From: Marsupella aquatica
Lineage: Eukaryota; Plantae; Marchantiophyta
Length of the DNA stretch: 64,000 bases
NCBI GenBank assembly: GCA_973895155.1
Contig: OZ316891.1
Span: 11,223,875-11,287,874 of the forward strand
Reading direction: 5' to 3'
Below are positions 27,242 through 61,985 of the stretch, piece by piece; position 1 is the stretch's first letter, and each line of letters starts with the position of its first letter. Position numbers and translations under genes: made by a program. The notes under the pieces were generated by a model. The model was not told the origin of the DNA. It saw nothing but the letters and a program-made list of their open reading frames with translations, and did not search any database.

Positions 27242-29974
27242 CGCTAAACTACCTACAAAGAAAGAAAGTGTAAAATGGAGACCAAATGCCAAGCCCCTCC
27301 AGTGACTACAAGAACAAAGTGGAAAAAAAATTACAAAAATGGTATCCTAATCACTCCTATGTGGAAGCAAAGCCTTTGCATAAAGATATTATGCTCTTGG
27401 GTTTGTGCATTTCTGGCCCTTATATCCCCTTCCCATTGGACCCTTGCCTCTAATTGGCTAGCCTAAAATGATTGAGGATGGTTGGATATGAGATCCAAGG
27501 GCCAGAATGTTGTACTAATTGGAACTCTTCGAATTGACTATTATGTCACGATCATCCTATGCTATGCACTGGGCTATTCAGAATGGTCGGATCGTGGATC
27601 GGAGGGCCAAAATTGAGTCTTACCCCCAAATTGGTCAAGGATTCATTTTCCACTATTCTCTTAGTGCTTGGCAATTTGAAGGACTGTCCCGTCATGGCAA
27701 AACGAGTCAAAGTAAGCCAGTCTTGATCCGAAGACCTCTGGCTCTACAGCCAACCAACCCAACCGGTACACCGATGCGTACTGTTGTATGTAGAAAATTC
27801 AAAATAAATAAAGTACCATAAACTTTGAGGCTGGGTCGTGCCCCCTAAGGTGCCCGGAGCGCTGCCCGTTCTATTTGAAATTCAAAAAAAATGATCGGAC
27901 CAATCAGATTGCAGGAAAACTAAAATCAACGTTTCTCCCTTACTTTTACTCAAAAACATCCGTGATTTTTCCCACTCGTAGATCTCCGCATGATCTTTCT
28001 TTCGAGCCAGAGATCACATCGAACGGACCAAAATTGACGTCAGGGCGACCAAAAATCGTGCAACCCAAAACAGGCGCTGAGTCCGAAAATCGAAACCGGC
28101 AGTCGATGCTCCTAAAGAATGCGAGCTCCGGGTTACCCGGAGTGCTTTGTACTCGGACTTGCGGCCCGACTTGCGGTTTAAGGGCGGTCTTGCAGAGTCT
28201 TTTGGTTTCCCGCCCTGAAATGAACCCCTGGCGTCCCTTCATGAAGTGACAGTTTGGCAGTCCCGAGTGGGTCCTTGGTTGAGATGCAAGGGCAAGGGCC
28301 AGTGCATTTCTGGCCCTTGAGGTCCCAAGTCTTCAAATCTCAATAAAACAAAACAGCAAATATAGCACGAGTAGCTGCGACTGAGTGGGCAAGTCACAAA
28401 GCTGTTCTTGATTGTGTTTAGATCCTTCATACACTTTTTCCCTACATATGTGGGCAGCTATAGGGGCCCACATGCAATACAGCCTTAAGGCTCAGTTTGC
28501 TGGTTTTAGAGTCTCTAGACAAATGTTCTTTAGTGACCCTCCTACACAATTTACTCTATGGCTTTACCAGACCTTTCAGTTTGTTGCCCAATAGGGCTTT
28601 CTAAGGTCTTTTTGCAACTGGCGGTGACTAAGGGCTTAGTGCATCTTTTAACTTTTCAGGTTTTTCCTTTGTTTTTTCCCTTTTGTTGGGTTTCTTATTT
28701 TTGGGATGTTTGGGGCTTTCTGTTCTTTGGCACTGTGATATAGATAGTTTGTCCTCTTACTTTGGACCTATTTTTGGCTCTCTTAATTTTACTTTGTTTG
28801 GCTTGTTTTGGTAAATTGGTCTGTTTCTCCACTGTTATTCTCTAAGTGGAAACTTTGCTGGTCAAGTTAGAGCCCAGGGAAGCACCAAGAAAGGTGATCC
28901 CCAAGAGTCATGGTGAATCAATTTGCTTCAGGCAAAGCTAATGTGGACTGCTAGATATTATTATGAGTGTGTAGCCAAAAGAATATACGGGAGATGTACA
29001 ACCAACAGAGAGTAACTTGGCATGAAAATCAGAACTCCTATTGAGAGCAAAGGATGTGAATTTCTATCCATTGTTTCTGTTTTTGCAAGGTAGTAATACT
29101 GTGGAATATTGCTAACATTTATTAGCCAGCTTCCTAAGAGTCATTCGCACCACATCTTGGTGAAATTTAAATCTAGGTTTGGTTATTAGATTAGGAGAGC
29201 AAGTATCTTTGATTTATCATTCACTGTAGATGTTGTGAGGCTTAAGGACTACAACTTGTTGAGTAGGACTACATACAGGATTATTGGCAGCACATAATGC
29301 ACAGTCAGTGAAAGTGTATGAAGCGTATGCAATGTTTTATACCACCACTGTCCCGGAGCTATGAGGACAATATAGTTACTTTTTTCACTTGAGAATATTT
29401 TGACTAATTGTGGTAATCTGGATCCAACAGGTTTTGCTTCGAGTACAGTGGAGGAGAGAGACTTGCGAAGACTTTAATTAGAAATGTGTACAATAACCGG
29501 GATTATGTGAAGTAGTCACCAAGGGCAGTCAACAAAAATAACGCTCCAAAAGCTAGAGGGGAGGAATAGTTACTTAGTGTAAACCTTTGGGGTTTCACTT
29601 TAATTCACAAAAATGACACATCTGCCACAAAGGATAAAGTTATTTTATTGATTCAAAGGAAGACTTTGGAAAAATTCTGGAAAAAAATTAATAATTAGGG
29701 TCTTTTAAATACAATTTTTAGACTTATAAGAATATTAGAGTCTTTTTATCAAAATTTTGGAAGATTTCAAGAATTTTCCAACTTTATAGAAATTAGAAAT
29801 TAATTTGTTTCTCTTACATTTGGCACTGATTTGTTCAATACGTGACTTGGATCATTCCCCGCTTGGATCCTTTGGTGTGATGGGTTCCCGCTCATAGTGG
29901 GTCTTTTTGCATACATATAATTTTCTCTAAGTTTCTGGAAGACAGATCCAGCATGCACTAAACCAGGTGTTTTA

Positions 29975-31256: not shown

Positions 31257-34200
31257 CTATCGTTCTAATGTCATGGTTTGTACGTGAGCATATTGGGTCC
31301 TCAGACTCAAAGGCACGTGCACAGCATAATTGTCAGAATTTGATTTCGAAGACACTTCCACACTACTTTTGATCATGTTTGCATCCTGATACAAACTAAT
31401 GTCCGTAGACGACCCCGCTTCAAAATCTTGCTGCTTAGTTATGGTGACAAAGACCATTAATATGGAGGCCAGCAGGAGTGCAACGGCCATGACGACGAAA
31501 GTGTAGCGCAGATCCCCGTTGTAGCTGACGAAGAGGAACACCTCTATGCTACCAACAAAAGTGCTGAACTGATTGACTAGGGCCAAGAGAGAAAAGTAGG
31601 CACCTACTAAGGTCGGCGCTGGAATGCAAGTGGGAATACAAGCGATAAACAATGCTCTGATGTAGGAGCGGTGAGCACCTAAGCACACACCGTAGGCGAA
31701 GGCAAAGATCAGAAACTCCCACTCGGTGTTCAGCCCGAGCAGTTTCGACGTCCTCCTGGACGTCGCATTAAAGAATAGGCCTAAACAAGCATAGATCGGG
31801 AGCAGAAGATGAAGAAGCAGTGCTATGAGCATCATGACCTTGTTGCTCCAGGAAAGTGCAATCTGGACGACGAGGAAGAGGATGCTTCCTGCAAGAGAGG
31901 AGACCTGAGACACCACCGCAAACCTGATGAAGTTTCTCGGCGAGAAGCATAAGAATCCAGCATGGAACACGGTGGCGTTACCCATGGACGATAGAAAACA
32001 AATCAGGAGAAGCAATAATCCACTTCGCCCCTTTCCCGCCTGCCCGATCCTCAGCCCCAAAACCGCCATCAGCAAATGCTTCGTTGCTGGATGTGGGATG
32101 TATTTCAAGCCCGGCCCGGGCCTGTCTTTGAGAAAGAATGCGCTGGAGATCACCGTCCAACTAAACAACCAAATCCCTCCGATGCAGCAAGCTATGCGCA
32201 AAGACCAGTTGTTAGGGTCACTCCCCATGAGCTTAGGCACCAATGAAGATCGGAGAAAGAAATAGGCTGCCAAAGTGCAGAGAGCCGTCGACAAACACCC
32301 AAAACTGGATCCTGTTAGGGAAACCTTATATATAAATCGAATCCTCACGCTCTGAAATATCTGCACTTCGTCGAACAATCGTGTTTTCAGGATAGGAACG
32401 CCGCTTGCGAGGGACGAGAGATGCGAGTCGAGCCAAGTGGACAACAGCCCGACACTGACGGTGGAGAACAAGAAGAGAATGCCGCCAATCCACCACCATT
32501 CTGCGCGGAAGAGATTGATCGTTATCGCAGAGGCGACTACGCCAGTTCCTGCTCCCAACCATAACAGAAAACTTGGGTATTTGCTGTAGTCCAACAAAGG
32601 GCTGGTGACAGTGAACTGTAACAATTGTATGACTACGGACGCTCCTAGCATAGCTGTGATCAACAGTGCTGGTTGCCATGACCTGGTGCTGAGGATCTCC
32701 AAGATGGTGACGCCAGATGACCTGAATAGAGTCCAGATTGAACCCAGTCAGTAAGTAATACCGTAAAAAAACTCGATAACGTAATGGACATCAATCATTA
32801 TCATCACAAGCGGATCCTTGAAATTCAGTCCATCAGAGACAATCGTTGGCTCTGTTCTAGCAATCTTGGCGGAAACTCTAGGCACCCCTGACGTGCTTGA
32901 TGAGCGAAATTGGCTGAATTAATGATAACAAGAGAGGCATCTAAGCACGGTTTCCAACGCCGTAAGTTACTATGAAGGTTTCGACAAATTGTTAAGCGGT
33001 CACCTTCACATTCCACGCGCTGCCTCAAAAGAGCCTCAGTACTCTGACATAGTTATTACTGAACTGCCATAATTATATCACTTAAAAAAGAGATTCTTTT
33101 CAAGATGAGCGACTTAACCAAAGTCCATAAGATTGGCTTTCAAGATCCGATTGCCCGCGACGGTTTGCAACCTCTCAATTGTGGTGATCGATCAATCGCA
33201 ATAACATCTTTCTGTCTTTAGTAATTTAAATCTTCATGATAGTCCAGACTTCTAGTCAGATGATTCAAACCAAGATTTTTATTACAATTCATTTGCACAG
33301 CACAACAAATTCTTAGGTCAACGTAACAATCAACTTAACGAGCGTGAATTGGAAGATTTCAACTTATCACGTACATGGCAAGAGATCCACTCCACAATCC
33401 AGTACTTTAGGTGAATTTTAGTGGCATTATCATGGACAGTCCGGGCCGGCCATGAACCGCGAAGAGCACGGATAAAAAATAGAGTGCAACTATGCCGTTA
33501 AATTCGGGAGATGATCTATCAGTTCCCAGAAATCTATTGATGCTCATGCTCAGCTCAACCCATTGATTCGTATTAATTTGTAGCACCAGCGACAGATACT
33601 AAGTTGTGGATCGAACTGGTCAGCAGGAAAGGACAAATGTTGTGCACGCACCTTGTGGCGTTGCCGCCCAAACTGTCAGTAGTCCAACTGGTAAGATCCT
33701 CTGTGAAGGAGTCACACACTTTTAAACATCTCGGATCTCGATCCGTCACATTATACGGGCAATGCACAGCATCTGCTACAGTCCCTTTACCGTCCATGAA
33801 ACTCCTCGAAGCTGCAAAGAGACTAAATATGAGCAGAGGGAAGAACACCCAGAGCGCAGCCTTAAACCCGCATATTCCAACGTCACAAAGTAACCATCCC
33901 CAGACTTCGGTCGTCGTTGGCTGGACGGGCCCAGTGTCGTCAGGCTTGGCCACCCTTATCTTGTTCTCGATCCTGTTGCCCCTACCCAATCTAGTGAACG
34001 GATGAGCAGCCGACGGTCCACGTCCTGGGTAAGATACATTATCAGGTCTGGAGTCATAATCCTTTGAAAGGATATCAGAGCTCCCCTGCAGAATAACGCT
34101 CCTTGAACTTTCCTTCCAAGACGTCGTCTGGCTGGATGCAGATGTGGACTGTGAATGCTCAGATTGCAACGAATTTTCCTTCCTACGCGTCGCTTGGCTG

Positions 34201-34577
34201 GATGCAGATGTGAACTGTGAATGCTCAGATTGCAACGAATTTTCCTTCCTACGGGTCACTTGGCTGGATGCAGATGTGGACTGTGAATCCTCAGATTGCA
34301 ACGAATTTTCCTTCCTATGCGTCGCCTCGCTGGATGCAGAGGTGGGCAATGAATAATTAGATCGCGACGAAGAAGAACCTGAAACAGCGCTCTCTGTGAC
34401 GAATTTATAGGAACGTAAAATACTTCTAGTCGCACTAATGTCGGACGTTTCCTCCGGAGAGGGCTCTACTCGTAACTGAGGTGTACGTGTAGCTTGAAAG
34501 AGAACTGCCTGGAATCGGCTGAAATCGTCGCTGATCGATTGCGATCGACTCCAGTTATCGATATCTGGTATGTTCAT
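31257..34577 (-). CDS. Atg22-like MFS permease (vacuolar amino-acid efflux family); exons 34577-33652 and 32721-31257, ~796 aa
   Basis: TTTEVWGWLLCD, Cys-rich first loop, SVVIQ...LLDY, LPIYACLG, LGLNTEWEF..FAFAYGVCLGAHRSYIRALF, YFSLLAL; many TM segments. Donor AG|GTGCGT and acceptor ttcag| join in frame (926+1465 nt). An upstream exon is possible. Confidence 0.75.
34130..34345 (-). repeat. Coding 60-bp repeat x3 (SASSQATRRKENSLQSEHSQ) in the Atg22-like N-terminus
   Basis: tggatgcagatgtg.actgtgaat.ctcagattgcaacgaattttccttcctac at 60-bp period. Confidence 0.9.
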
Positions 34578-34644
34578 AACTGCGTACTATACAATGTAAG
34601 GAAATCATTAAGAAAGACAGTGTTGAACCTTTAACAACATGTAC

Positions 34645-42820: not shown

Positions 42821-43949
42821 GACTTAATTCGCTTAACCCAAGGCAGTCAGGACGGCAAGAAGGTTAAGTCCCCTTTGTAAAGACATCTGAGTGGGACGTC
42901 CACCATTTCTCAGCATAAACGGCCAAGAGAGACCGGGAGGAGCCAAAAGAGGCTTGGATTTTACCTTGCACATATGTAAGCTTCCACAGTCCTAGTGGAT
43001 CAATTGTTTGAGTTTTTCTTGTCTACATTGTATTAAGGCCAAAGTAACCTTGGAAGATTACATGAATAGATACAAAAGACTTTTGTTATAGTTTCATTTA
43101 TCATAGTGAATTGTTGTCCATGATCCACAAAGAAGGTTGTTAGTTTGTCACCTTGATCAGCTTGCCCAACCAAAGGGCCCAATGTGTAGGCACAACCACA
43201 TCAGCTAACAAGGGGAATTTACAAACGATAGCAAACAGATAACAGTAACAGGAAACAGATTCTGGTACCAGTTAAAAGGAGCTGTTACCAGTGAACAGTG
43301 TTTGGATGGTCGTGAACAGTTATCTTAAAAAAGGTCTCAAAATCTCCATTTGAAAGTACAAGAATAGAAAACAAAACCACCAAACCCTCGTGATAAATAA
43401 AAGAACAACAAGGAAACAATTTTTTGAAACATAAAAGACGGTTGCCAATTGAGATACACAAAATCCAAGACAAATACAAGTAGAAAAGAAAGGCCAGAAA
43501 AAACATTCGCATATATTATCGCAAAATAGAAAATGCGCTCGGCTTAAGTGATACAAAATGCAGTTATCAACATCAACAATCTGGCCTAAAAATCCCATCC
43601 ATGAAGTCACGGTCGACACCGTTGGAGGTTTTCGACTAATACATGAACAGCGCTCGGCGCTAGCCAAAAACTAACTAGAAAACTAGTCGTTTCTTGGAGA
43701 CAAGATGCGTCCAAACCCAGACAACATAGTCAAGATCCATTCCCTCCCACAAAATCCATTGTCGTTTCAATAGTGCCCGGCGCTAGCCAAAACCTAAATA
43801 GTAGACAACCGGGAAAACTCTAACACCAGAGCTGAGGTCGACTTCAATGCCACAAAATCCGGAAAACTTTAGCAGCGCCCGGCGCTAGCTTAAAGCGATC
43901 AGCAAAAAAAAAATTCCATCTAGCTTTTCGAGTTGCAATCATCATCCAC

Positions 43950-44381
43950 TCATGCTGCTTCTCTCCGCCGATCTTTCTTGAAGCCGAGACCACGCAAACA
44001 AATGTATCCCTCTGAAGGTCCTCGACGAACAGCCCTCATAAAATGTTCATTAGGAATATTACTGTCCTTAAAATCAACTCGCCCGAACATTTCTTGTACT
44101 CTTCGATCGATTGGGAGTACCCCATCAACAAGAACTCCCGGGTGAGACGAAAACTGACTAGAGAACGGAGGCGCAGGGGAATCGACAATCCAAGGGATGT
44201 TCTTCTCTCCAGGACTAATAGCCTCATCATACAGGAGAGCATGACGGTTCCGAAAAGTGGAAGTTTCAGTTTCTTTAGTCTCCATCCGCGATTCAAAAGA
44301 GCTGAAATGGCTCTCTTCCGGACGCACACGAGAAGGACGAAAAGCTGCCTCCCAATCCATTGGCTCATATTGACTCACCAT
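43950..44381 (-). CDS. Hypothetical 143-aa ORF inside the MULE (unknown function)
   Basis: ATG-initiated ORF located between a palindrome cluster and the 13-bp array; no recognisable domain. Confidence 0.35.
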   Translation of the reverse strand: MVSQYEPMDWEAAFRPSRVRPEESHFSSFESRMETKETETSTFRNRHALLYDEAISPGEKNIPWIVDSPAPPFSSQFSSHPGVLVDGVLPIDRRVQEMFGRVDFKDSNIPNEHFMRAVRRGPSEGYICLRGLGFKKDRRREAA

Positions 44382-44529
44382 GTTTCAAAGATCCCGATCT
44401 AATATGTAACCTCTCCTCCCGTAAGAACGTCGTCCGCGAGTGCTATAGCCGACAAAGGTCAAAGAAAGGTCCGCGAAGACTAAGACGCCAGATAAAGGTC
44501 CGCGTACACTACCATTCCGAAACGACCAT

Positions 44530-44880
44530 CAAACTATCATCGTCCCATTCTATTGCCTCCCGTAACTATCTTCGCCTTGGTAACAGGTATCGTCCTGTTC
44601 TATCGCCCTGCTCTAACATCCCGTTCTATCGTCTTCCCAAAACAAAGTCTTCCCAAACAAACTATCATCCCGTTCTATCGTCACGTTCTATCGTCCTCCC
44701 GAAACAAAGTCTCCCCTCCCGTTCTATTATCCCATTCTATCGTCCCGTTCTATCGTCCCGTTCTATCGTCCCGTTCTATCGTCCCGTTCTATCATCCTCC
44801 CGAAACTATCGTCGTCCTCAACTATCGACGTCCCCAACTCTCATCGTCCCAAACAAACCTAAACTGAAACTATAGTCGTC
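44530..44880. repeat. Tandem array of a ~13-bp unit (CTATCGTCCCGTT)
   Basis: Near-perfect copies at ~44738-44795, degenerate copies either side. Confidence 0.9.
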
Positions 44881-45217
44881 CCTTCCGCCCGGTCCCTAAA
44901 CTATGGAATCATCGTCCAGAAACTATGGTCCCCAATGGCTTTCCGACGACTGACTAAAGAACACAATCCAAATGGCAGTTGGTATCCAATGACGATGACC
45001 GTTGACCCCGCCGTTGACAGGAAACGACAAAGACTAAACGGCCATTTAGAGATTCCATTTGGCGAGCGCCAGGCGCTTGTAAAGAACAAAAGTCAAAAGT
45101 AATCAACAAGTAGAGAGAAATCAACAATTTAAAAGGACCCTCAACAGAGAAAAATAATACAGATGTTACAAGCGCCGGGCGCTGCTAAAAGATTTAGCCT
45201 CAACTACCCACTACTTC

Positions 45218-48200
45218 TCACGGCTCTGAAGATTCTGAGTCGCAACCAGAATCTGTACTCTGGGATCTGTCCGTGGACACAGCCTCATCATCTACGTACT
45301 GGCTGCGGGAGAAGTCATCAACATAAGGATGTTTAATGAACTTTCGGTCAACACCCCTTCGTAACCGAAGACCTTTGTTTTCCCAGCAGAGTGTCCTTGC
45401 ACTTTCTGCTTTCCTTGCGGCTTTCTCTGCATAGGAGGGAAGAACAAACCGTTTTTCCGGTGTTTCTACGTTGTGTCTCGCGATCTTCCTCCGCAGTTTG
45501 AATCGTCTCCTTGCATTCCACTCTGACCTGATAGAACAAAGTCCATTTTGTAAGGCGCCTTTCCCCAAAACAACAAAAGAAATGTTATGAATTGACGGGA
45601 ATGGAGAAAGAAGCTTACGAGTTTCATCTGCAGTTGCACGACGCTCTCCCTTTTCCTCCTCGGAGTTTCTTGTACCTTGTTCCTCTCCACCTTCACTCAA
45701 TTCATCATCAGAATCAAAATTGAGAACCGACCAAAGCTTATCTCTCTTTTTTCTGTCGGCAGTAGGAACAGGTGGAGGTAACACTGCAATCTCTTTGGGA
45801 GACAACAAATCCATGAAAACCTTTGAAGCGGTTTCAATAAATTCTTTCCGGTGTTCTATCCTGAGTACAAATCGTCCAGAGAAGTCGCCAACAATGTAAG
45901 AGCTTCCAGCCCCAACAGTCCAATCCATAAAAATATCACGAGGCCGTGTGACAAGCTCTATAACAGATTGCATAAAACCCACAGACAGACGAGCATTTCT
46001 AGCAAACTCCATTTGCGGGAATGGATCTAATTTGAGTGAAGAGAGTCCGATGAAATTGGTAACCGAAGGGTCCTCACTGATGGACAGCGGCCGAAATTTG
46101 GGGTCTTTGGGAATTTTACATTTCCCATTAATTCGGCCAAATATGTCGAGCCTGAGGGTAAACATCTCTCGATCTGTCTTTGCCGCATACATCGGGTCAG
46201 ACATCACAATATTATGCGAGCATATACACTGAAATTTCCTTGACTCCTGACAGGCAGCAATGACTTGCGACATGGGATCGTACTCCCTATTGTGTAGAAT
46301 TACAAGGAACCCATCATCTGATAAAAATGGATCCATGGATTTGAAAAAAGATCTAGCCATTGAGTGATCTGGAATGTTCCATTTAGGAACCTTCTTATCA
46401 ATGATAGATGGTTTGAACCCGGTCGGTAGGTAAATGAAGCCGGCATCCACTCCAAACGATCTTACTTTTCCCCCCCGAACAACTCCCTTCTCTTTAAATC
46501 CCAACTTAACGAGGTCTTTTCCCCATTTCTCCACATCACTAACCCACTCGGGCTTCTCCTCCTTGTTGAACGTCGAGTCAAAAAATTCAGAAAGGCTTGT
46601 CTCAACCATGCAATGGCGAGACACAGTTGTTTTGAAGTTTCCAACTTCACGTTGGAAACCAGAAGCTATAACACACTCCCTTAAAGATTGTCCACCTTCG
46701 ACAGCTCTCTTTCGTTTCTTCCTGGTACTCGTGGCGTCGATAGGAACTATAACCTTCCCTTTGTCGATTGGAGTAATGGGGTCCGATCAAGCTCCCATGT
46801 TTGCCTCGGAAACTTCAGGTGTAGCATCCTTTTTCGTATCTCCCGTTCCCACCGTATTAGACTTCCTCCCTCCTAAAATATAACCAGGTCGTAGTTAGAA
46901 TAAGTACTTTTAAAGTATTGAAAGAAGCTAGCGCCTGGCGCTAACCAAATGCAATTCACTTAAGTCGCAACCGAAGCCTAATAACCAAGAAAGAGAATAC
47001 CCTCAACATAATATTTTTTGCCAGCGCTTGGCGCTGGCAAAATCATGGATAGCAATACTTACTCTTCTTTCCAGATTTAGTAGACTCGCTCGGTGCTGCT
47101 AGCTCCACTTTGGCTTTCGCGCGAGGTTTGCGACTCCGGTCCACATGCACAACAGTTGTTTCACAGATAGTTTGCAAGTTTGTGGCAGACTTGTCTACAT
47201 CGTCAAGTAGACCCTGCTTCATGTCGGACACAAGTTTTGCTGGCATCTGAGACTTTGAAAGCTTATGGAAGGCATCTTTTTCCCTTTGATCAAAAGGAGA
47301 ATCCCATCTATCTGTATCTAGATACCAGGGGCAGTGAGTTCTCTCCCATTCTGTCATTGGTCTCGGAGGAAATATGCCCTCCGTGGGGTACATAGAGTAC
47401 AAATCAGCCAAGGCATCATCTTCACTTATTGAAATCCACTTCATAAAAGCTGCAGGATATGCCCAGAAGTAATCAGGTTTGGTTACCTCCATGTGCATGT
47501 AGAACCTATACACAAACCTCTTCGCTCGCTTCTGGTTTCTCTGGGTGTAATCTTCTTTGTCAGGGTACTTTGAAGGCCACATAGTGTGAAAGAACTTATT
47601 CTTCATGGAATCACCAAATCTCTTGAATTCATTTGTAACAAACTGAACTAGATCATCAAACAAACTACAATTCCACTCTTCCAATCTAATCGCGGGCATG
47701 GTTTGCTCAACTTCACGTAGACATGAATGTAACATGCCAGCAACAATTCCCTCCACACTATTCCAAGTGATCCAAGTGTGGCACCACTGTTTGACTGGAT
47801 CATCGTTAACACTTGCTGGGTGAAAAAACTGTCTCCGCAGCTCAGGATTGCAATGTGCCACAAGTAAAGTGCTTCGTAACTTTGGGTCTAGAGCAGAAAC
47901 AGCGGTGAACAATCGTGCGCGGTCCATCGTACATACAACGGTGTCAGGCTTCTTCTCTCTCTTGTTTCTCTCTGTGACAGCATACATTTCTGCACATGTA
48001 CCGAGGAAATCTTCAAATTCAGGACTTAATAAGGGCATAATTTTTGAAGACTTCACTGCCCAATCTTTGGTTGCGTCTTTCATCATGGCCGCATGCCGTT
48101 TTGAAATCTCATCCGCCGACCATGGACTCCCTTGAGCCTCCGCTGCCTCCATGTCGAGTTTGAATTGATGCGAGTATGACTTTATCTTATTCTCACAAAG

Positions 48201-49272
48201 AATGTAAACAAGTGCTTCTTGTGGCATCTTCTTCGTATACCATGACTCCTTTCGAGTTTTCAGCCGAATGCTTTCAAACTTCTTGAAATTACCCGGGTCA
48301 ATCAGTTTACTGTAATACTCAAGGTCATGCGCCAGAATTCGTTTGATTCTGTCCGCATCCAGGATCCAGGAAGGCTCTACAACTGCTTGGCCAAGCCTAC
48401 ACGAACAAACGTTGAGAGTAAGAGTCAATGAAAAACAATTCATATATAAGCAGCGCCGAGCGCTAGTAAATACAACACTCGCAAGATTTAAGGAAAGAAC
48501 TGGAAATCATGAGAACTTACTGATTCACGGTGTGCATAGCTGCCTCAATTTCAATGAGAGATCCCTTGTCTCCTTTAAATATTGTACAGAGCACACAAGG
48601 ATGATATTTTGGATTGTCCGGGTTCTCCTCTGTTACAAGCGTCCAGGAGTACAGCCTGTGATTTCCATCGAATACAGAGAACATCTTATCCTTCAAGACG
48701 AGAAAATCCGGGTCAGCCTCGCATTCAGCCTCAAACTTCTCATTCTCCAATTGCCATATTGGATCCCATGAATCACGAATGTCCTGGGTACAGGTCAGAA
48801 CAATTCCGTTCTCATCCGTTGGCTGCACATAGAAACGCATCCCTATCGAAGAGTTGTAACCCATACTACGAAAAGAGTCTTTCAGCTTCTTGATGGAAGA
48901 GCTATCTTTCTGCAGAGTACGAACCACCTCCATGTGAACCAATCGATACAGAGGGATTCGAGGCGGCTCCTTGTCAAATCCACGAGAATCCTTTCCAAAA
49001 GACATGACATGTTTCGAAATGAGATCAGTCTCAGCAAGCGCGCAATCCACAACATCCTGGATCGCAATTGTGTCTACGTTGTCCATCTTTCTTCGCAAAG
49101 GATTTGGACCCAAAACACCGCTGACAGAAGTGAGCGGCAACAACTTTGAGGAACGAGTTACACGACGTGTATAGACTGAACCAGTAAACGAAGACTGCGA
49201 AGATTCAGAATAAGCTCGCTCCTGGTCAGGAACCGCACTATACCCTCTGGAAGAAGAGGGGAATACCTCCAT
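45218..49272 (-). pseudogene. ParB/sulfiredoxin N-domain + helical region + beta-class DNA amino-methyltransferase-fold protein; exons ~49272-48521, 48396-47063, 46872-45218; one premature TGA
   Basis: IPLYRLV..VVRTL...IKKLKDSF...FSVFDGNHRLYSW (ParB-N). VDAGFIYLPTG sits at the DPPY position, followed by VIELVTRPRDIFMDWTVGAGSSYIVGDFSGRFVLRIE (motifs X-I-II). GT-AG introns in frame; in-frame TGA at 46787-46789. Confidence 0.75.
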
Positions 49273-50182
49273 CGTCTTCCTTCTAGAAGCGTATGAACTA
49301 TCGTACAATGAAATTATGGAACTATAATCATCTCTGAACGTGTAATATATTCTAGCGGGAGGATGACATAACCTAGAGGAAAGCCATTAGCTCTGATGTT
49401 TGGCGGTTTCCAACGTCTGTATACGGAAGGTTTAATTACCAAAATCAAACGGTAGAAGATGCGTAACACACACGGAAGTCATAAGTTACCGTTGAATGTT
49501 ACCGTTAAAGACATTTCCTAACATCATATCAATACTAGCGTCGGGCGCTAGCATTAATGATGACCATCAAGGTGAAAAATTTAGAGTATGCTTATAATAG
49601 CGCCCGACGCTAGTATAAACTGGAAGAAATTTAGAGGTCTTTTTTGAAGGAGCTATGACATAAATTTCGGCCTTTCCACCCCCATATTTTATTAAAGTAT
49701 CCTTCAGTACATCGTTTACGGAGAAATATTCCTCAAATGTAATACTAGCACCCGACGCTAGTATAAATGTTCATTTATCATCCATAATCCATCAAAACCA
49801 TCCTTTGAAGGCACCATTTATTCCCAATTACCACCTGGTATGTGGTCATAATGTTCATTTTCAGGGAATTTATTCTATACTAGCGCCCGGCGCTAGTTTG
49901 GAATGTCGAGATTTCAGACACATTTTTAGTGGCGTATTTTAGTTAGCGCCAGGCGCTACTAAAATTTGACAATACCTTGTCATATCTTATGGTCTGTTTA
50001 AGTAAGGTTGGTGATCATTTTAGCAATATGTTCGTGTCTGACATCCGGACTTCTCGGGGAAAAAACGACAAAAATCATTTATGGTGCCAACGGATCCTCC
50101 ATCGTCAATGTTTTATGTCGTATACAAACGGATCGGTTAACGTCAAATTCCCAGGTTCGACAGATATAAGCTGAACAATACC

Positions 50183-53100
50183 ATGATTTTTTCTTCTTTC
50201 AAACGCTATAGCCCTCGGTTTTTGTTTTTGTTCACCATGTCTCGGTCTATCATTCTTTCTCGATTCGGTTCTAAAGATATTGTGACTATCCCTGTCCCCA
50301 TGAAAGATACGTACAAGCAGGTCCGGGAGAGGTATCTCTGCGGGAGATTTGATTTGAAGATGAATGACATTGAGGCCATTGGTCGAGAGCTCGAATCCAT
50401 TGATGATATCGAGGATGCTGCAACGTTCAATGTCAATGACGGTGAACGGTTTTGGCATCTCTACGCAGGGATCTCGTACTCGGTTCGTTTAAGACAGCAT
50501 GCAGGATTGTCCAGTTTCCCACCAGTTCCATGTGATGTGGTTGAGATTTCTTCAAGTGAGGATGGAGATCGTACTCTAAGTCCACCGTCAAAGAAGAAAA
50601 GCCCGCTCCCTACTGTCATGAAAGCTGAGACTTCGGGAAGCTGTAAGCAGTTGGAGGTCGTGTACCGGCGCAGTGCGATGGATACGTTACTCAAATCAAC
50701 TGGTCATAGTGAGTTGTCACGGTTCATATCAGCGGGTGATTTCAGGCATGAACAAGTGTCCTGTCTGCCAGCTAAGTACAATGGTAACGTCGTGTTTGAG
50801 TTGCCGCCCATTGATAAGATGCTCTCTAAAGGCTCTAGGCTTAGGGACATGGATCGTGCCAAAGATTGTTACATTTGGACACGCATATTTCCAACAATTG
50901 CAACTGTTCATCCTAAAAACCTTTGGCAGTTTGGGAAGGTTACCTGTACGGGATTCATTGAATGCAGGAACAAGTCCTGCGACTATTTCCAAAGGAAGAA
51001 GAAGGCAAATGCTAAGGCATGGCAGGGTACTCCAAAGCTCAGTGGTCAGTATGCTGTGGGATCTTTCATCGAAGAGGGAGGTGTTGTTTGTCATTACTGC
51101 GAACAGATTCCTTTTTGTGTGAAGTACTGCCCTGCCCGTTTGTTTTACATGTACCCCCAAGTATTACTTGATGCGGAAACATGTAGTCATATGTCCCGCC
51201 TGGCAATTCATATAGGTGAGCACAACCATCCAGGTAGAAAAACCTTTTGTAGGAGTGCGGAGAAGATAGCTGAGGATCTAATTAAAAAAACATGAAGCCA
51301 ATCCTCTATCAAAACCGGCAGGGATCTTGAATTCTACTACAGGGTCCTTAGTGAAATCTCTCTGCGAACATGTTGACGACATGGTCGATATCGAAGAAAC
51401 TGAAATATGGAAGTCTCTGATGGTCCTTTCCACTCCGCAGAAGTTTGCATCTCTTTGTCGGAGCGTTAGGATAGACCAAAAAGGTCGGGGTGAATTAGAT
51501 TTTCTCTCGCAAATGCAGAGGAGGATTCATGTGTCATTTCTCCAGAGGTATTTGCTTCCAGGTCAGGGATGTTAGAACGATAGGCCTCACATCTTTAAAA
51601 TGACCGTGAAAGGTCACGGTTCCGGTGTGGATCTTTTGAGGCAGATGCAACTGGGTGGAAGACTCGAAGGAGCCTGGGTAAGTTTTGATGTGATGCAGCG
51701 TGTCACTACGGATTGGTTTACTTTCAGCACACATGTCTACGACCACAATTTCCGTGCACTGTGTACAATTTTCACATGCGAGTTGAAAGGTGAAGACACT
51801 GAGTCTTTTGAAAAGGCATGGAGAGTGATGATTGAGGTTTGCAAAGAAAATGAACTTCAGGAGGTTGTCATCCAAGGATTTATGGCCGACAATGCACAAG
51901 CTGGATGGAATGCAGTGCAAAATGTTTTTTTTGGTGGACACCCGGACCCGGAGAGGGAGCGCTCTGATGCATTTCACTTTTATCAATCTTTTCATTGTCA
52001 TTCCAAGGAAGGAGTACTGGAAGAATGTCAATCGGAGCATCGGAGACTTTGGGAGAAACTGAGAAATGCTCCATCATTTGAAGTAGCATACCGGGTGTCC
52101 CGAGAGATTGTTGTGTGGTGGCAATCAGGAAACTGTGTCCCCGGAAAGTTGAAGATGCTGCAAAGCTGGATATCTTGGTGGGTTGTTCGCTGGCGCCAGT
52201 GGGGCAATTTTATTTGAGTGGTAAGGCATCCATCTATCTAGACTGTAATGTTCATCAACTTCATATTAGCGCCAGGCGCTGGTTATTTTCTCCATACACG
52301 TCAAAACAAGTAGTACAAGAAATTGAAGCAAATATGTAGTTAGAATTCAGTATTAAACATTGAAATTGTATTTCAGGCCTGTTCTACATATTTATGTTGC
52401 CAGCGCCGGGCGCTGGTAATAGAATACTACTTACGGTTGACATTTTCGTATGGCAGAGCAAAAGCGCTGAGGAAGGTGCCTTGATCCCCAACTGTACAGG
52501 GTCAGAATCAAGGCATGCGTCCATGAAAGCCTCGGCTACAAAGAAAAAGGTCGGTCTTTATGAAGCTTGCAAAGTTGACCAAAACCGCGTCATCCGCGTC
52601 GTGGTGTTCAGAAGCTTCCTCCTTTTCCTGACATTTTGCCTGTTCTGAAGGGTCTTCTGAAATTACATTCCTGGAAGAGCAAGGACTTGTCTTAGTGTGA
52701 ACAACAGGATTGAGTCGATCTGCGCCATCTGCTTTTGACCTCAGGATAAATGTTAACGTGTTCCCAGAAACAATAAGGTTTTTGGAGCCGAATCTCCAAC
52801 TTGGTAGTCGGAATGGGAGGAACTCAAGGCCTCGGTCTAATCTCACTGTGGGTCACATGAAGCGAATGGAGTTTGCACGACAAGAAGTGATGAGTTTGGA
52901 TGGGGAATGGAATGTTCAGACCGGAAATGCTTTTGGAAAGCAATTTCGAATTCAAACCCATGAGAACCATCGATCACCAAGCACATACTTCGTCCAAATT
53001 TGTATCTTCCCCGCTTGCTCTTGTGAAGACTTCTTCCTCCGACATTCGCGTGGCAAGTTGTACATGCCTTGCAAACATCTATACTGGGTGTACATAAATG

Positions 53101-53204
53101 TTTTCAAACTTGAGATTGAGGAGTCGACTCTTTGTAGCCAACCTATTTTGACTTTAGGCAAAGTCAGGCTTGTGCTGGAGAGGCAGAACTTGAATGGCTT
53201 ATGA
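50183..53204 (+). pseudogene. MULE-type transposase with GCM/WRKY-like N-terminal Zn domain, DDE core and SWIM finger; disrupted
   Basis: CTGFIECRNKSC...CHYC...CPAR...HIGEHNHP; WVSFDVM, FMADNAQAGWNAV, FHFYQS, SESRHASMK; CSCEDF..CKHLYWV. Frameshift in the A-run near 51285-51295 and in-frame TAG at 51573-51575; intron(s) at ~52220-52456 and ~52550-52745. Confidence 0.85.
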
Positions 53205-54775
53205 GAGAGATCAAAACTGCCCAATAGGTCGTCGTTCAATATAACGGTTATTCCCTATTTTGTCTTTTTCCAACGAATATTTTAGTTGTTTTATTGAGAC
53301 TTTGTTGGTTAGCGCCGGGCGCTGGTTCTAGGAAACCGAATATTCATTGCTTCATTATGTACGTGCATTGTGGAAGAATGACCTCTTGTTTTATTTAAAA
53401 TGTGTAAGTTGATTAAATTGTCTACTGTCTTCAAAGCCTCGAGGATGTGATTTGTCATTTGTTTGTGACGTTACAAGGTCCATTTAATCAACTCCTTTAG
53501 ATTGGGTTGATTTGGACTCCACGATTGACATGTGCTATGGTGGGTCCCACTCTAAGGGTCACTATTTGGCGATGAAAATAGATTGATTTGCATGAATGTT
53601 TCTTTAGGCACACTCCTAATACCATGTTTTTTATCTTCTACAATAAATTGTTGTGTCAATGGAGGATTGATAGTACACTTCATCCATCGGATGGCACAAA
53701 ATAATTGTTTGTTTTAAACTTTATTGCCCCCCGAAAAATTATGCCATTAGAGTGGTGGATATGCACGTTATGGTTCAGGCAAAACTGGTAACAGGGACAA
53801 GCTTACTGGTAACAGGTACAATTTCCCTGTTAACAGAAAATAAACCCCTGGTAACAGGTTTTCTGTTTTCTGTTTTCTGTCATGGCTATCATACCCGCTA
53901 ACAACTATCATGGCTAGCAAAAGCCACAACTCAAGAGGTCCACATTACTGATTAACAAAAATAAATGAAGAATGAATTTGAGTAGTGCAGATCTATCAAA
54001 CGAGGATCGTCTTGGTAGTAAGCATGTGTGTTTGTGAGTGGCAAACTAAATGTGGACTTGGTTGTATTCTAACTGTTTCAATACTAACTCGTGCTTGTCT
54101 TTGAAACCCACTTTGTTTACCCACTTCGGAATGCATTTATATGCATGCCCATTGCATTATTTACCTTGTGTTAATATTTCAAAACATAATTATAGCTTAG
54201 GTGGCCCCAATTCATGCACATTTTTCCCTAAAAAGTGCCTATCTATGGCAAATTAATAGTAAGATGTGCCCCGGTCAGTCAGAACTGAATCAACTGCACA
54301 ACTATTTGGGAGATGTATAATATAATAAATGAAGTAGCTGACCGGGTTACAAAAATTACAAATGACTAAACATAGTCTAAATTCAAGTTCATGTCAATTA
54401 TATAGGTCAGATTCATTTCTTCTCTGGCTATGGAAAATTCAAAGACATTCTGATTAATGAACTAATTTAGTAACCTAGGTGTCCCTTGTTCATGACGCCC
54501 ACCTTGGAAAGAAGGCGTGAGTCTCTCAAGTACTAACATGTCTCATCACAACATTTACCTGCAAAATAGAAAGTAAGGTAATTGTTAAACAAACAATAAG
54601 AGTTCAATCAAAGGCAAGACAAACAAAGAGTCTAATCCATAGCGAACTAACAGACACATGCAATATACATTAAACCCAAACTAATAAAGATAATACAACT
54701 AGCAATTATATCTACTTTAAGATTAAAATAAAATGTAATACGTCATATTTTATAAGTTCCCTATAAAAACTTACT

Positions 54776-56625
54776 TCATGTGTGGCCAGTTCTATTTCTG
54801 ATAGTCTGGAGTGTCTGGTCCAAGGTATTCAAAGCCCATGACCTTTCTTTTGGCAAATCATTGAAATTTAGTTGTTGATGTACATAGGCTGTCAACCCCA
54901 TAGTGGCACAAGAACTACTTTCACATTCAAGAGAAAGCAGCAAATGCATTCTGAACTTGTCCTCCTCCGATGAGACTCCAATCTGATTAGTTTCATATGC
55001 AAAATCACGAATATCACGAAGACTCTGCACCAAAAAAAAAAATTTGGTGAATTGGAAATTAATAAAAAAGAATATGCAACCAAATAAAATACATTTTTCT
55101 TCACTTACCTCATCGTCTAAATCTTTAACACCATGTTCAAAGTTTCCATGATCATCATTATGATTCCAATAATCAGTGCCAATAGTCTCGATAATATCAT
55201 CTGCATCTTGAATATCAACTTGACCTTCTTCAGGATATGGTGGAGTTAAAACTATTTTAGATTCTCTCTCTCTTGCTTGAAAAGCAAGTTGAGGAATGTG
55301 TGATGGCCTGTTCACACCTCGTTCTCGCACCGCTCTCACTGTATGGGCATTCCATGTTAGAATGATATCATTTACAGTATTCTGAATGAATGGAAGAAGT
55401 ACAGTAACAATGGAGTATCTATGCAAGGGATTATCCATTTGCAAAAATCCTTCCTCGTATGATAGAGTACGAAATAAGTCCTTATAATGACCCAATCCTT
55501 GTTTCTTCAAGAATCCCCAAAATGCTTCGATCCTCTGTAAAAATCACAATGATTGTAAAAAATTAGTATGTTCCTTGAAATTATTTTTCCTTTTATAAGT
55601 TAAAGCCACAAAAACCCCGTGGCAGAGGGGCAACCAGGCCATCAAAAAGCCAGCTAAACAACATGACCCCTGGGAGGGCGGGCATAAAGCATTAACAACG
55701 TACACAGACAACAAATCAGCATCGCGGCCAATGCAACATTGGGCCCCCATAAGTCCCATAGGCAAAAACTTAGTATGTTACTAAACATATCAAGCAAATA
55801 ATTTTGATAACATATAGTTGAGTTTAAGTACTACCTGATTATGAACTGAAGAACCTTTGCAAAAACAATGAGTATTTGGTCTTGCCCTTTCAAGATTATT
55901 TTGGACCAAAATATGCTCAGTCACATAATCAGAACGAATTAATAAAGGATGACCAAATCTTTGAACCGCATTTTTATACACTTCATAAATAGTCCGGGCT
56001 TTCTTATTTAATGCAACATGCATATAATATAATGTGTAGCTCCATCGATAGCTCCATGAATTATAATTCCATAATTTGCTAATTTGTCATATGCAACACA
56101 AGAAATTAAACAAAATTAGTACATCATTTCATGATCATGAACAAACTATCTGAATCATATATAGTCAAAAAATGATTGATTCAATCTAAATAAAAGGATA
56201 TAAATACTTGAATTTTACTCACAGTCCATATGCCAAATATGCATTGCTTTGGTGACATCGTAAACCCGACGTATTAGACATCCGTGTGCTCTTGATGCAA
56301 GTAATCCTGGAACTAAAACATCCAAGGCATCACGTACAAGCGTTCTTGGAACTTTGTATCCATCTCTTTGTAATCGTGCCTTTATCATTCTTATTCCCCA
56401 ATCTTTTGCATATCCATATATGGGAATAAACTCTAGAATCAATTGTCGAACCTCCTCAAGCGTATATGTTGGATACATTTTCTCTCCATTATTAAATACT
56501 TTCAACCATCGCCATAAAGTAATTCGATCTATTCCAAGTGCTAATGCACATTCCTTCATAGTGTAACCAATGTGAAGTGCTGCCATCACATCTTCACACA
56601 TTGAATTGATGTTTGTTGCATCCAT
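54776..56625 (-). pseudogene. IS3EU-like (HTH + integrase-core DDE) transposase, spliced, disrupted
   Basis: HTH ALALGIDRITLWRW; GIRMIKARL..G.KVPR; RRVYDV...WHMD; YDKLANYGIIIHGAIDGATH; GHPLLIRSD..TE; GSSVHNQ|RIEAFW; WNAHTVR. Frameshift at ~56025 and a non-canonical acceptor at ~56095. Confidence 0.8.
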
Positions 56626-56998
56626 ATATTTCCCAAATATTCTCCAAAACTCCAATGAACTAATACTTTATTTTGCCAGTGTATAATTCCACCTTTTTTA
56701 GAACAATTAGAGAACTCTGTCAGAAAAACAAAGGTCACAAGACAAAAAAACCAAGGCTAGTTAGAAAATGTACACTAAGTTGCCATTGCACATACAATAA
56801 AGTAGGAATATTTTTAGCAAAAGATACCATGGATTTACAAAGGATTTGAAAACTATGGAGGATTCTTTGGTATATTCAATGCCCCAATTTAAGCTCTTGA
56901 GAGCATCTATTACAAAAATAAGCAAAGATACAAATGGGCAAACAAAATCAATATATAACATTAAAAATTCTGCTCATTATCATGACTATGAATCATGT

Positions 56999-58330
56999 TT
57001 ATGCATTTTCATTTGAAAATGTGTAGGCACCACCTAGCTTCTCATTAATTGCAATCCCAACTACGTATACCGGTTCTATAGGGGAACATCTGTACGAGGT
57101 GGCGTGCATATCTTTTCCACAAATAAAGAAAATATCCCCATCTAATATTGGAATCTTTATTCCATACTCAATAACAACTAGATGTCCACCTCGTTCCTCC
57201 ATTGAAGGATTTGATGCCATGAACATAGTGTATTTACTACAATCATGATCATTATGAACTATATTACAATAGTTCTTTGTAAGAAATAGAGGATATGTTG
57301 GTACAGCATGTTTCACAACGTTGGGCTTGGAAAAGTATTGAAGTAATTCTTTGCTTAGATCCATGAAAGGATCTTTGCAATCCAAAAATTCCCTCACTAC
57401 CGGCCAAAAATAATCACAAAATAGTAGGAAAATAATTTCAAATAAGATTCGATGGGAGCATTGCTCATGAATTAACTCCAATTGCAATGTGCTAATTGGA
57501 GTTGTTAACTTATCCCTGTAGTAACTCACAAAATGTGCTCATTTTCCTTCTCTCCACTTCATAAGTGGCCCCACAGCTCGGATTATTTCAATCAATGCTG
57601 ATCTCGAATCAGCTCTACGAACAGTCCATTTGTGATTGTAGGCATCAATTATTGAATGCCTTAGAAATGCTCGATCGCCCTCTGGAACAACTCCTTTCAT
57701 TCGTCCCCCTATTATTTCATTGGTAGACCTATCTTTCCAAATTTCAATAGATGACAAGGGATCCATAACATAAAAGTTACTTAGTATCACCTTCCATACA
57801 ATATGTCGTTCTGTTTTGGGTGGGCTAAATCCTCTCTCAATCAAGAAAGCATTTTTATGTTTCACAAGAAACTTAGGGCTTCTCTTCGCAAATGTCTTTA
57901 CTGGGATTTTATGTTCTTCAAATTTTTCAAAATGATCTGCCTTCCGATTTATATATAAAATTGGATCTTTACGAAACTTTCAGACCCTGGTGGCAATCTC
58001 ATTCCCAAGCGAAGATAGATTGTACCGGAAAGTGATCAAGTGGACTATTGTTTTCCACTGATTGGCAGTAAAATACTCAGACCAACGACTGGTTTTCCCC
58101 AAGAAGTGAAAACCAGAATAAAATTTTGATAACTCTCCCTTCATTTTCCCACCGGAAAAGATGTGCAGACCATATTCAAAGAGTAACCAATCACTGAGCA
58201 ACCATTTCAGTAAAAACTGAATATGTAATTTTCCCAACTGAGATGTAAGAGTGATGAGCTCATAGAAATAAATAGCAGTAGGGAAGACCAACAATTGTTT
58301 CTTTGACATAGAGGCTGCATTTAGCGTCAA
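56999..58330 (-). pseudogene. TET/JBP-like 2OG-Fe(II) dioxygenase gene (~440 codons, one frame, two premature TGA)
   Basis: ORFs 57980-58330, 57539-57865 and 56999-57529 share one frame, separated only by TGA at 57980-57982 and 57539-57541. C-terminal VHNDHD (HxD)...GGHLVVIEYGIKIPILDGDIFFI...MH fits the DSBH pattern HxD..GGxL..G...GD...H. Confidence 0.6.
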
Positions 58331-59710: not shown

Positions 59711-60397
59711 TTAGAGCCAAGAAATATGATTACGAACAGGGGTCTGCAAAGTGGGATCAATGGGATGGAGATGACAATAGAAGAACCATTTGTCAACTCC
59801 ATGGGCACTATGATCATATATCTTTTGATCGCAAGCATATCCTTCTGCCTGACATTCCTTCAAACAATAAAAATGCCACATTGTGGGGCATCAAATGCAA
59901 TGGACAATATCTGTCCAATTTAGGGCATCATGTTCACCACATGCCTTGCATGTATGTAACGGGCAGATAGGGGTGTGTGATGGCAGACACGCACCGCAAA
60001 AAAACCTTACACAAAATCTATCTGAACATTTTTGAACATATTGTGGAGAGTCAAGAGAACCCTCCAAATTCCCTAACTTTCCACATTGGGCACACTTTGC
60101 ATGTTTATGCATGCAGTCTTTGCACTTCCACTTCCCATGTTGGCCAGAAGGTGGGGGAAGGCCGACTCTTGGACAATTATTCTCTGCTGCATGCAAAGAT
60201 TGTGCATTGAGATGGAAGTGCCTCAAGCATGGTCCATCACAAATGACTAACTCTCCACCATCATCACAAATGGCACAACAATGGGCTGCTTTTTGGTAGA
60301 TTTGTTCGCGTGAAAACTTCAAAACATGTGGTCCAAACACAGCTGAATGTCTCACCTCGCCCTTATCTTTTCTACATGGTTGTTTAGGACGAGCCAT
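59711..60397 (-). pseudogene. EDM2/NSD-type tandem PHD-finger region (one premature TGA)
   Basis: CAICDDGGELVICDGPCLRHFH...WKCKDC...CAQCGKLG...CPLHTCKACG...CI*CPTMWH..C...FFYCHLHPIDPTLQTPVRNHI; the last part matches the EDM2 motif YC.xH.ID..L.TP.R.HI. TGA at 59891-59893, TAA at 59711. Confidence 0.8.
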
Positions 60398-60554
60398 GCC
60401 TACACATCCATAAAAAAAATTAATTGTTAGAAATCATAAAAAATTAGGATAAACTCAGAACTAACAAATCATCAAAAATACACAATAATACTACTATTCA
60501 ATGAGCTATTCAAGATTCATGTACAAATTAGTTGCATACTTCAATCTATATAAC

Positions 60555-61985
60555 AAGTCCAAGTACATGTTGTTCTCTTAGCCATGCAGGTCTCACACAA
60601 GATGCTGGTATGATAAGAGTCGCGGCTGCCAAATGTCCCTTCTTTGAACTACTCATTAACAAAATTAATATTCACTAAGGAAAGCATGGTTTGAGAGATG
60701 GAACGCAAAATTTCTAGAGCCACATTCCCTTACCAGAATGGGACCAAACTTTGGTTGCACATACCCCAGGTAGTAGACAACGTGCTCGTGAAGTAAGAGC
60801 ACCAACAAAGCTTTGGTTGAGAAATGAAAAATCAGAGCCTTTGTGGGGTACTCTTGCCTCCTAAGCAACCTCTGACTTCTCTCCCTTGCCACTATTCAAA
60901 CCAGCTCTGACTTGCTAAATCTGCAACCAAGTCCAAGTGCATGTTTTCCTCTTAGCCAGGTCCCTAACAAGATGGTGGTTCATAAGAGTCGTAGCTGTCA
61001 AATGTCCCTACTTTGAAGTACTCAAAAACTATCGTTCGTTAAGGGAAGAAACATTTAAGAGATGGAAGCAGAGGGCGAGGAATTTCTGGAGCCACATTCC
61101 CTGGGCTGAATGGCACCAAACTTGGCCAGCACGTACCTCAAGTAGTAGACAATGTCTTGGCAAAGTAACAGGATGAAGGGAGATTTCAGTGAGAAAATGA
61201 AAAATTGGATGCTCCGAGGCGGTCCTCCTGCCTCCCAAGCCACCTTTGAATCCTCTCCCTTGCCACTACTTCGATCAGCTCGTACTTGCTAGACCTGCAA
61301 ACAAGTCCAACTACATTGTGTTCTCTTAGCCACTTCCCTAACAAGATGGTGGTGTCACAAGAGTCGCAGCTGTTGAACGTTACTGCTTTGAAGTACTCAG
61401 AAATCAATCGTTCTGTAAGGGAAGTAACATTTAAGAGATGAAAGCTGGGAGCGTGGAATTTCTGGAGCCACATTCCCTAGGCAGAATGGGACCAAACTCG
61501 GCCAGCACGTACCTCAAGTAGTAGACAATGTCCTGGTAAAGTTACAGCATGAACAAAGATTTCAGTGAGAAATGAAAAATCGGATGCTCCGAGGTGGTCC
61601 TCCTGCCTCCCAAGCCACCTTCGAATCCTCTCCTTTGCCACTACTTCGATCAGCTCGTACTTGCTAGACCTGCAAACGAGTCTAGCTACATTGTGTTCTC
61701 TTAGCCATGTCCCTAACAAGATGACAGTATCACAAGAGTCGTAGCTGTTGAACATCACTGCTTTGAAGTACTCAGAAATCAATCGTTCAATAAGGGAAGC
61801 AATGTTGAAGAGATGGAAGCAGGGAGCATGAAATTTCTGGAGCCACATTCCCTAGGCGGAATGGGACCAAACTCGGCCAGCACGTACCTCAAGTAGTAGA
61901 CAATATCCTGGTAAAGTTACAGCATGAACGGAGATTTCAGTGAGAAATGAAAAATCAGATGCTCCGAGGAGGTCCTCCTGCCTCC
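60555..61985 (-). repeat. ~375-bp tandem repeat (~4 copies), open as a 125-codon repeat on the minus strand
   Basis: Marker cacattccct at 60721, 61093, 61469, 61844 (periods 372-376). Confidence 0.9.

Follow-up and report, generated by a model that had tools for sequence, protein, structure and literature searches.

A decayed Mutator-like transposon of a land plant with a ParB-methyltransferase cargo gene and dispersed palindromes of its own: a candidate self-recognition system

ParB-type accessory genes have been described in DNA transposons of algae (what is said of cited papers refers, here and below, to the parts of their text that were accessible). The element Sola1-1_Ec32 of the brown alga Ectocarpus carries, opposite to its transposase, a gene for a protein of 1,104 amino acids (aa) that joins a ParB to an N4C/N6A methyltransferase domain, and the authors propose that this accessory protein binds the element that carries it and modifies it (PMC12477816). 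In the red alga Bostrychia, the Plavaka elements (EnSpm), with the genes PAG2 and PAG3, have ParB-like cargo beside inverted-repeat arrays, and homologues of the Plavaka accessory genes occur in Mutator elements of Chondrus (10.1101/2025.02.11.637652). In both of these algal genome papers, published in 2025, the ParB-type cargo was proposed to bind its own transposon and to modify it, with no test reported. The VANC proteins of Arabidopsis VANDAL elements recognize motifs that lie in introns, between genes and in non-coding DNA at the ends and differ between families (PMC5735166). Here we describe a comparable locus in Marsupella aquatica: a transposon of 10,685 bp, located at 43212-53896 of a 64-kb stretch of contig OZ316891.1 (the window, which is the whole stretch analysed), which encodes a Mutator-like transposase and, divergently, a cargo protein with ParB- and methyltransferase-type domains, and holds the palindrome AGCGC-N3-GCGCT.

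The cargo fits what has been published on the algal accessory proteins, with which it was compared by description: ParB-like and N4C/N6A methyltransferase domains, on a DNA transposon, opposite to the transposase. As in Sola1-1_Ec32, both domains belong to one protein of similar size (1,246 aa against 1,104), encoded on the strand opposite to the transposase. Unlike Sola1-1_Ec32, found in a brown alga with a Sola transposase, the carrier is here a land-plant element with a Mutator-like one; and the accessible text on the algal element mentions no palindromes and does not discuss the catalytic motif, whereas palindromes and a non-canonical motif are found here. With Plavaka the locus shares the ParB-like cargo, the element-specific inverted repeats as proposed binding sites, and a PF01555 methylase in the cargo. 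In Plavaka, however, ParB is fused to a 2-oxoglutarate (2OG) oxygenase and the methylase to a SET domain, in separate genes, and tandem arrays adjoin PAG3; the element described here has one ParB-methylase fusion, and single sites are spread through all its introns and its ends.

The VANDAL/VANC system is similar in its Mutator-type element with poor terminal repeats, its accessory gene and its short, family-specific non-coding motif. VANC motifs are asymmetric tandem repeats in the same orientation, whereas those described here are palindromic; binding and demethylation are demonstrated for VANC (PMC5735166) and putative for the cargo. No VANC-type Pfam match was obtained for any cargo exon, the folds being instead those of ParB and methyltransferase. 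The end domains of the cargo share their predicted folds with bacterial ParB/Noc/KorB, CcrM, M1.HpyAVI, M.BceJIV and rotifer N4CMT. The parS site is a palindromic target of a size similar to that of the candidate site of the cargo. Unlike the bacterial ParB/parS system, the element has no ParA partner, and unlike its bacterial counterparts the cargo has a changed catalytic motif and a gene with spliceosomal introns.

Transposons of algae are already known to carry ParB plus methyltransferase cargo, and also ParB next to inverted repeats; in view of Sola1-1_Ec32 (PMC12477816) and red-algal Plavaka (10.1101/2025.02.11.637652), an earlier, sequence-only reading of this DNA overstated the novelty. 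What is new is a carrier that is Mutator-like and from a land plant, a cargo that is fused and probably does not catalyse, the dispersal of palindromes in introns, and a first indication that the motif switches between families. In the literature searched, mostly articles available without subscription, such cargo was not found described for any land plant. We read the locus as one copy, now decayed, of a plant DNA transposon that has two genes and exists in many copies; its cargo would bind the palindromes of its own element and counter silencing without writing methyl marks, an account to which we assign a probability of about 0.45.

The palindrome AGCGC-N3-GCGCT has 12 exact matches in the window, all within 43212-53896, and none in 100 dinucleotide shuffles; among the gapped palindromes of the element it ranks first, any such word reaching at most three in the shuffles. 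Its core is better written as the 13-mer AGCGCCNGGCGCT. With up to one mismatch there are 15 sites inside the element and one outside (6356), which is not palindromic; the sixteenth site (49747) carries two mismatches, a level at which 18 matches inside and 11 outside the element correspond to background. The specificity for the element asserted in the sequence-only reading is thus confirmed, with 12 exact copies, or 16 when worn ones are counted, and with a placement like that of the published VANC motifs.

All 16 palindromes lie outside the five exons, which make up 61% of the element, and none of the six non-coding segments, among them the three confident introns, is without one. The left end has five, three of them in the terminal non-coding DNA (43649, 43772 and 43874, spanning 43649..43886) and two just downstream of the cargo stop (45065 and 45171; 45065..45183). 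Two are in cargo intron 2 (46930 and 47023), one is in cargo intron 1 (48452), five are between the divergent genes (49537, 49599, 49747, 49882 and 49945; 49537..49957), two are in the transposase intron (52268 and 52402), and one is in the right end, downstream of the transposase (53311..53323). Their spacing ranges from 62 bp to 2.3 kb, and the flanks of the 13-mer in the six segments are otherwise unrelated.

The cargo gene, divergent from the transposase gene, comprises three exons on the minus strand with 1,246 codons, one of them (codon 724) a premature stop. Exon 1 (48521..49272) contains the ParB/sulfiredoxin-type domain (49014-48523) with the motif DGNHR (48669-48655); exon 2 (47063..48396), a conserved region of 445 aa without known family; and exon 3 (45218..46872), the beta-class amino-methyltransferase fold (46660-45761), the premature stop (46789-46787) and a candidate in-frame intron of 90 nt (45618-45529). 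Intron 1 (48397..48520, 124 bp) has the same position in L001, a related cargo locus; intron 2 (46873..47062) has 190 bp. The fusion of the two domains rests on splicing in the window and on the junction of exons 1 and 2 in L001. Ten relatives of the cargo were looked up, of which nine have a name: four are from Calypogeia fissa, four from Riccia sorocarpa, and one is a spurious bacterial match.

In the ParB-type domain, DGNHRL is invariant in 9/9 sequences and corresponds to the G-x-x-R nucleotide-binding motif of the ParB/sulfiredoxin superfamily. The structural model (predicted local distance difference test, pLDDT, 82.6; one good model of five) retrieved 12 of 48,161 chains at Z>=2, 11 of which belong to the ParB/Srx superfamily judging by their titles; the best match had Z 5.8 and a root-mean-square deviation (rmsd) of 2.8 over 94 aligned residues. 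In the Foldseek listing, every match at ranks 1-30 is a ParB, Noc, KorB, PadC or sulfiredoxin protein. A ParB/sulfiredoxin-type fold of exon 1 has therefore moderate support from modelling. Sequence profiles did not identify ParB, a scan of the window's own exons giving a weak hint of DGQHR with an E-value of 0.11, and no relatives of this exon were found in the viral or prokaryotic contigs searched, nor any match in a paired-motif scan of prokaryotic genomes. Its look-alikes in the ESM Atlas, which serve as leads, are unnamed clusters, DUF3723 (31% of members, fungal) and ParB_N (11%); no paper linking DUF3723 to ParB was found in the literature searched.

Exon 2 has two homologues, at 47% and 33% identity, and no match in Pfam and helix-turn-helix profile tests. 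It follows the helix order of ParB, judged by eye, and is a candidate for the DNA-binding part of the cargo.

The C-terminal domain has 83 relatives among 1.84 billion proteins, and no longer relatives were found among 1,647 candidates of a word search. Its model (pLDDT 91.7) matches CcrM with E 2.8e-13, Z 19.4 and rmsd 3.6 over 228 aligned residues, and also phage and giant-virus methylases, clearly supporting a beta-class N6A/N4C methyltransferase fold at the level of the predicted structure. Profile scans of the window's own exons (Pfam, PHROG and NCBIfam) gave weak matches (N6_N4_Mtase, E 0.089; a DNA methyltransferase PHROG, E 0.27). Structure searches including Foldseek thus bear out both folds that had been read from the spliced cargo, that of ParB at a moderate level. 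As in the beta class, the order of motifs is permuted: YLPT (motif IV; residue 843, 46432-46421) precedes DWTVGAG (residue 1012, 45925-45905), which aligns to the S-adenosylmethionine (SAM)-binding motif I, D-P-F-M-G-S-G, of M1.HpyAVI and is retained in most of the relatives covering its position, 45 in all.

The canonical catalytic motif of beta-class amino-methyltransferases is (D/N/S)PP(Y/F/W). At this position the window reads YLPT, with Tyr in place of the catalytic Asp/Asn/Ser. The site is covered by 43 of the 86 proteins examined, none of them with the canonical motif and none with an aromatic fourth residue; seven keep Asp at the first position, one (P0050) as DPPT, which anchors the register in the same alignment columns. 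The catalytic motif given in 10.1101/2021.02.12.428880 is TSPPY. Since the non-canonical motif holds across sequences about 20-64% identical, it is a trait of the family and not decay of this copy. Marking of the element by methylation, as the sequence-only reading had it, was not supported: with a non-canonical motif in the window and in 43/43 aligned relatives, self-methylation by the cargo is doubtful, and N6-methyladenine (6mA) or N4-methylcytosine (4mC) is probably not written by the plant proteins. For proteins of plants, which do not have the usual catalytic motif, the published proposal of self-modification is corrected accordingly. In the alignment A1, many relatives start or stop at one point of the methyltransferase domain, which suggests an intron there without counterpart in the window copy.

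The element is flanked by an 8-bp target-site duplication, GCTAACAA, at 43204..43211 and 53897..53904 (plus strand). In contigs of runs X2 and X3, which are from two studies, 43203 is joined to 53897; this joint skips 10,693 bases, eight letters fitting either side. The duplication on both sides and the empty site bear out the mobile element postulated earlier. Because the flank is itself a repeat, the empty site may be paralogous; the ends of the element are fixed either way. The left end (43212..43311, plus strand) has an imperfect terminal inverted repeat and one subterminal CTGTTACCAG at 43282; the right end (53784..53896, minus strand) has three copies of CTGGTAACAG, at 53785, 53806 and 53848, inverted relative to the left-end copy. 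These 10-bp repeats are likely the sites of the transposase, separate from the palindrome. The terminal inversion is weak, with 25 identical bases among the outermost 40 (19 at the next best shift) and a gapped alignment score of 53, where 200 shuffles reached at most 52.

Runs X3 and X2 gave 2,475 and 2,043 matching contigs, whose identity ranged from 99% down to below 90%, and the summed contig depth, which does not equal copy number, is far higher inside the element than outside. There are clearly many copies of this family, and at the lesions 51283 and 51573 others read differently from this one. The flanks of the element are depleted in CG and CHG, which, like the liverwort relatives of the cargo, indicates a land plant and probably one akin to liverworts; the CpG ratio is 0.83 in the element, against 0.31 and 0.46 in the flanks and 0.65-0.93 in other parts of the window. 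We considered the high ratio as evidence of shielding and rejected it, since similar values occur elsewhere in the window and a young age would explain it equally well.

The transposase gene is on the plus strand. Exon 1 (50237..52220) encodes a Cys/His-rich N-terminal part and the motifs FDVMQ, MADNA and DAFHF, with a frameshift at an A-run near 51284 and stops at 51573 and 52215; after an intron of 236 bp (52221..52456), exon 2 (52457..53204) encodes an ES-x-H-type Glu motif and a CxC..CxH SWIM-like finger, its frame being broken near 52650-52700. We take FDVMQ and MADNA to be the first two catalytic Asp motifs, in a D, D, D-x-x-H, E layout as in Mutator. The 8-bp duplication also occurs in hAT and Zisupton elements; both superfamilies were considered, and the layout, judged by eye and without profile support, fits Mutator better. 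The duplication, with its empty site, is within the range of 8-11 bp given for Mutator-like elements (MULE) (PMC6446971), and the degenerate terminal inverted repeats are also in agreement. There was no match to Pfam MULE (PF10551), the SWIM match of the finger (E 0.61) is below the cut-off, and no relatives were found in viral contigs, phages, plasmids or PDB. From the Mutator-like transposase of the sequence-only reading there remain, therefore, a transposase with motifs read by eye and an 8-bp duplication, its frame broken and without profile match; membership in the superfamily is likely. In X2 and X3, a deep joint over 52213-53302 leaves out 1,088 bases from the 3' part of the transposase and has 24 other letters at the junction; it represents a deleted or diverged subfamily.

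The palindrome can be followed in other copies. At 49541 and 49750, the base that makes the palindrome perfect is the one found in the major contigs of runs X1-X3; at 49755 it is found in X1 and part of X3. In run X5, from another organism, short deep contigs in 49500-49990 cover little beyond the palindromes, the motif being preserved there while its flanks have diverged. Selection probably maintains the palindrome in the active lineage. In L001, 47% identical over exon 2 residues 1-252, intron 1 has the same place as in the window and about 820 bp, and in it a second palindrome, AAGCC-N4-GGCTT, is present in six exact copies (shuffle mean 0.01) and 12 near ones; the window palindrome is absent from L001 within one mismatch. 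A different palindrome in a related family is as expected if motif and binder co-evolve, a hint that comes from one comparison family.

As to mechanism, a dimer of the cargo would read the two-fold symmetric palindrome, probably through exon 2. The ParB domain is predicted to bind a nucleotide; with its help the protein, loaded at the 16 sites, may slide or bridge so as to coat the whole element and keep it transcribed and mobile; the methyltransferase fold would be a non-catalytic SAM- or DNA-binding module, and the transposase would use the separate 10-bp repeats at the ends. The outcome would be a family-specific relief from CG/CHG silencing, as with VANC for VANDAL. A wider form of this proposal is a parS/ParB-like self-recognition in land-plant transposons, in which a nucleotide-dependent clamp loads at family palindromes present in every intron, spreads, and by way of a methyltransferase fold with rewired catalysis blocks or reverses CG/CHG silencing, clamp and motif changing together. 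This we consider somewhat unlikely; if true, it would represent a second, independently built arms race of the VANC type, assembled from phage-like parts. If the cargo does relieve silencing, sequence-specific anti-silencing would not be confined to VANC of the Brassicaceae, and a sliding clamp of bacterial type would be working on eukaryotic chromatin. The element, whose host plant has CG/CHG methylation, lends itself to a stringent test: it offers a defined 13-bp site, a second-family site and copies without these lesions.

Several points weigh against an anti-silencing cargo that binds its own palindromes. The ParB match is modest, with Z below 8 and no Foldseek match under E 0.001, and the top Foldseek match is a sulfiredoxin, which is not a DNA binder. 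Comparison of exon 2 with nine plasmid ParB/KorB proteins gave values within the shuffled controls, in a low-power test that missed the ParB domain too. In other copies, no contig of the runs searched spans both genes. For L001 there is one short contig, in which the transposase is missing, and the array in it may stem from the insertion of an unrelated repeat. In the 16 sites, every one of the eight worn positions shows C>T or G>A in a CG/CHG context, and six of the nine variable places among copies in 49500-49990 fall in palindromes, which cover 65 of the 491 bases; this pattern argues that the palindrome is itself a target of 5-methylcytosine (5mC) in at least some copies. Besides, a Mutator transposase alone, AtMu1, can bind motifs and demethylate its element (10.64898/2026.08.24.746577).

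That last case leads to the possibility, which we hold to be quite unlikely, that the binder of the palindromes is the transposase or a host factor, the cargo having another task. The transposase of AtMu1 binds motifs and demethylates its own family (10.64898/2026.08.24.746577), the transposase of the window has a Cys/His N-terminal region, and L001 does not separate cargo from transposase. The AtMu1 binding peaks, however, are at terminal repeats, whereas the palindromes here lie inside the element and in introns, with a repeat of another kind at its ends; moreover, in Plavaka, of EnSpm type and thus with a different transposase, the inverted-repeat arrays adjoin the ParB gene (10.1101/2025.02.11.637652). 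A methyltransferase that is active despite its unusual active site, and marks its own element with 4mC or 6mA, is very unlikely. In its favour are the complete beta-class fold, the SAM-binding motif retained in most of 45 relatives, the Asp of 7/43 relatives, one with DPPT, and the existence of liverwort 4mC enzymes (10.1101/2021.02.12.428880); but an aromatic fourth residue is found in 0/43, the window has Tyr for the catalytic Asp/Asn/Ser, the mutations of the palindrome point to 5mC, and inactive methyltransferase domains are known in DIRS1 elements (PMC4738411).

A mechanical role, in which the cargo binds the palindromes, condenses the 10.7-kb element and brings its weak ends together with no effect on silencing, is also unlikely. 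Bacterial ParB does condense DNA around parS, the ends match at only 25/40 bases, the palindromes are spread from end to end, and the elements in which ParB cargo has been described are giants of 17-21 kb (PMC12477816; 10.1101/2025.02.11.637652); yet five sites lie between the two promoters and one near the right end, which fits transcriptional control better. A neutral origin of the palindromes by local duplication, with the cargo as an unrelated passenger, is highly improbable: some neighbouring sites have flanks in common and other tandem arrays are present in the element, but the same 13-mer occurs in six non-coding segments with unrelated flanks and never in exons, and it persists across organisms despite the mutability of methylated C. 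We therefore retain, as a tentative interpretation, a cargo that recognizes its own element and counters its silencing.

Other features were observed within the element. The left arm contains an open frame of 144 codons (43950..44384, minus strand), possibly a third gene or exon, which has no Pfam or PHROG match and is deeply covered in other copies, where its stop is read differently (43952 A>C). A tandem array at 44588..44854 (plus strand), with a 13-bp unit and higher-order units of 16 and 62 bp, is not related to the palindrome.

Outside the element, the repeat that holds the insertion continues into 54776-57979 (minus strand), where there are an open reading frame (ORF) with an rva_4 integrase core (E 3e-8) and a helix-turn-helix ORF. 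A frame of 179 aa in this region (56999-57538) has no profile match and shows an H-x-D...H pattern, which to us recalls 2OG-Fe dioxygenases; this region may be a further transposon whose cargo modifies DNA. A cluster of transposase-like ORFs without Pfam match is located at 23855-27346 (minus strand). At 31257-34586 (minus strand) there is an ORF for an ATG22-like transporter (E 1.5e-31), apparently a host gene, with an upstream frame containing a 66-bp repeat. At 59891-61985, an ORF with an NSD-type PHD finger adjoins a 375-bp tandem repeat of 3.4 copies.

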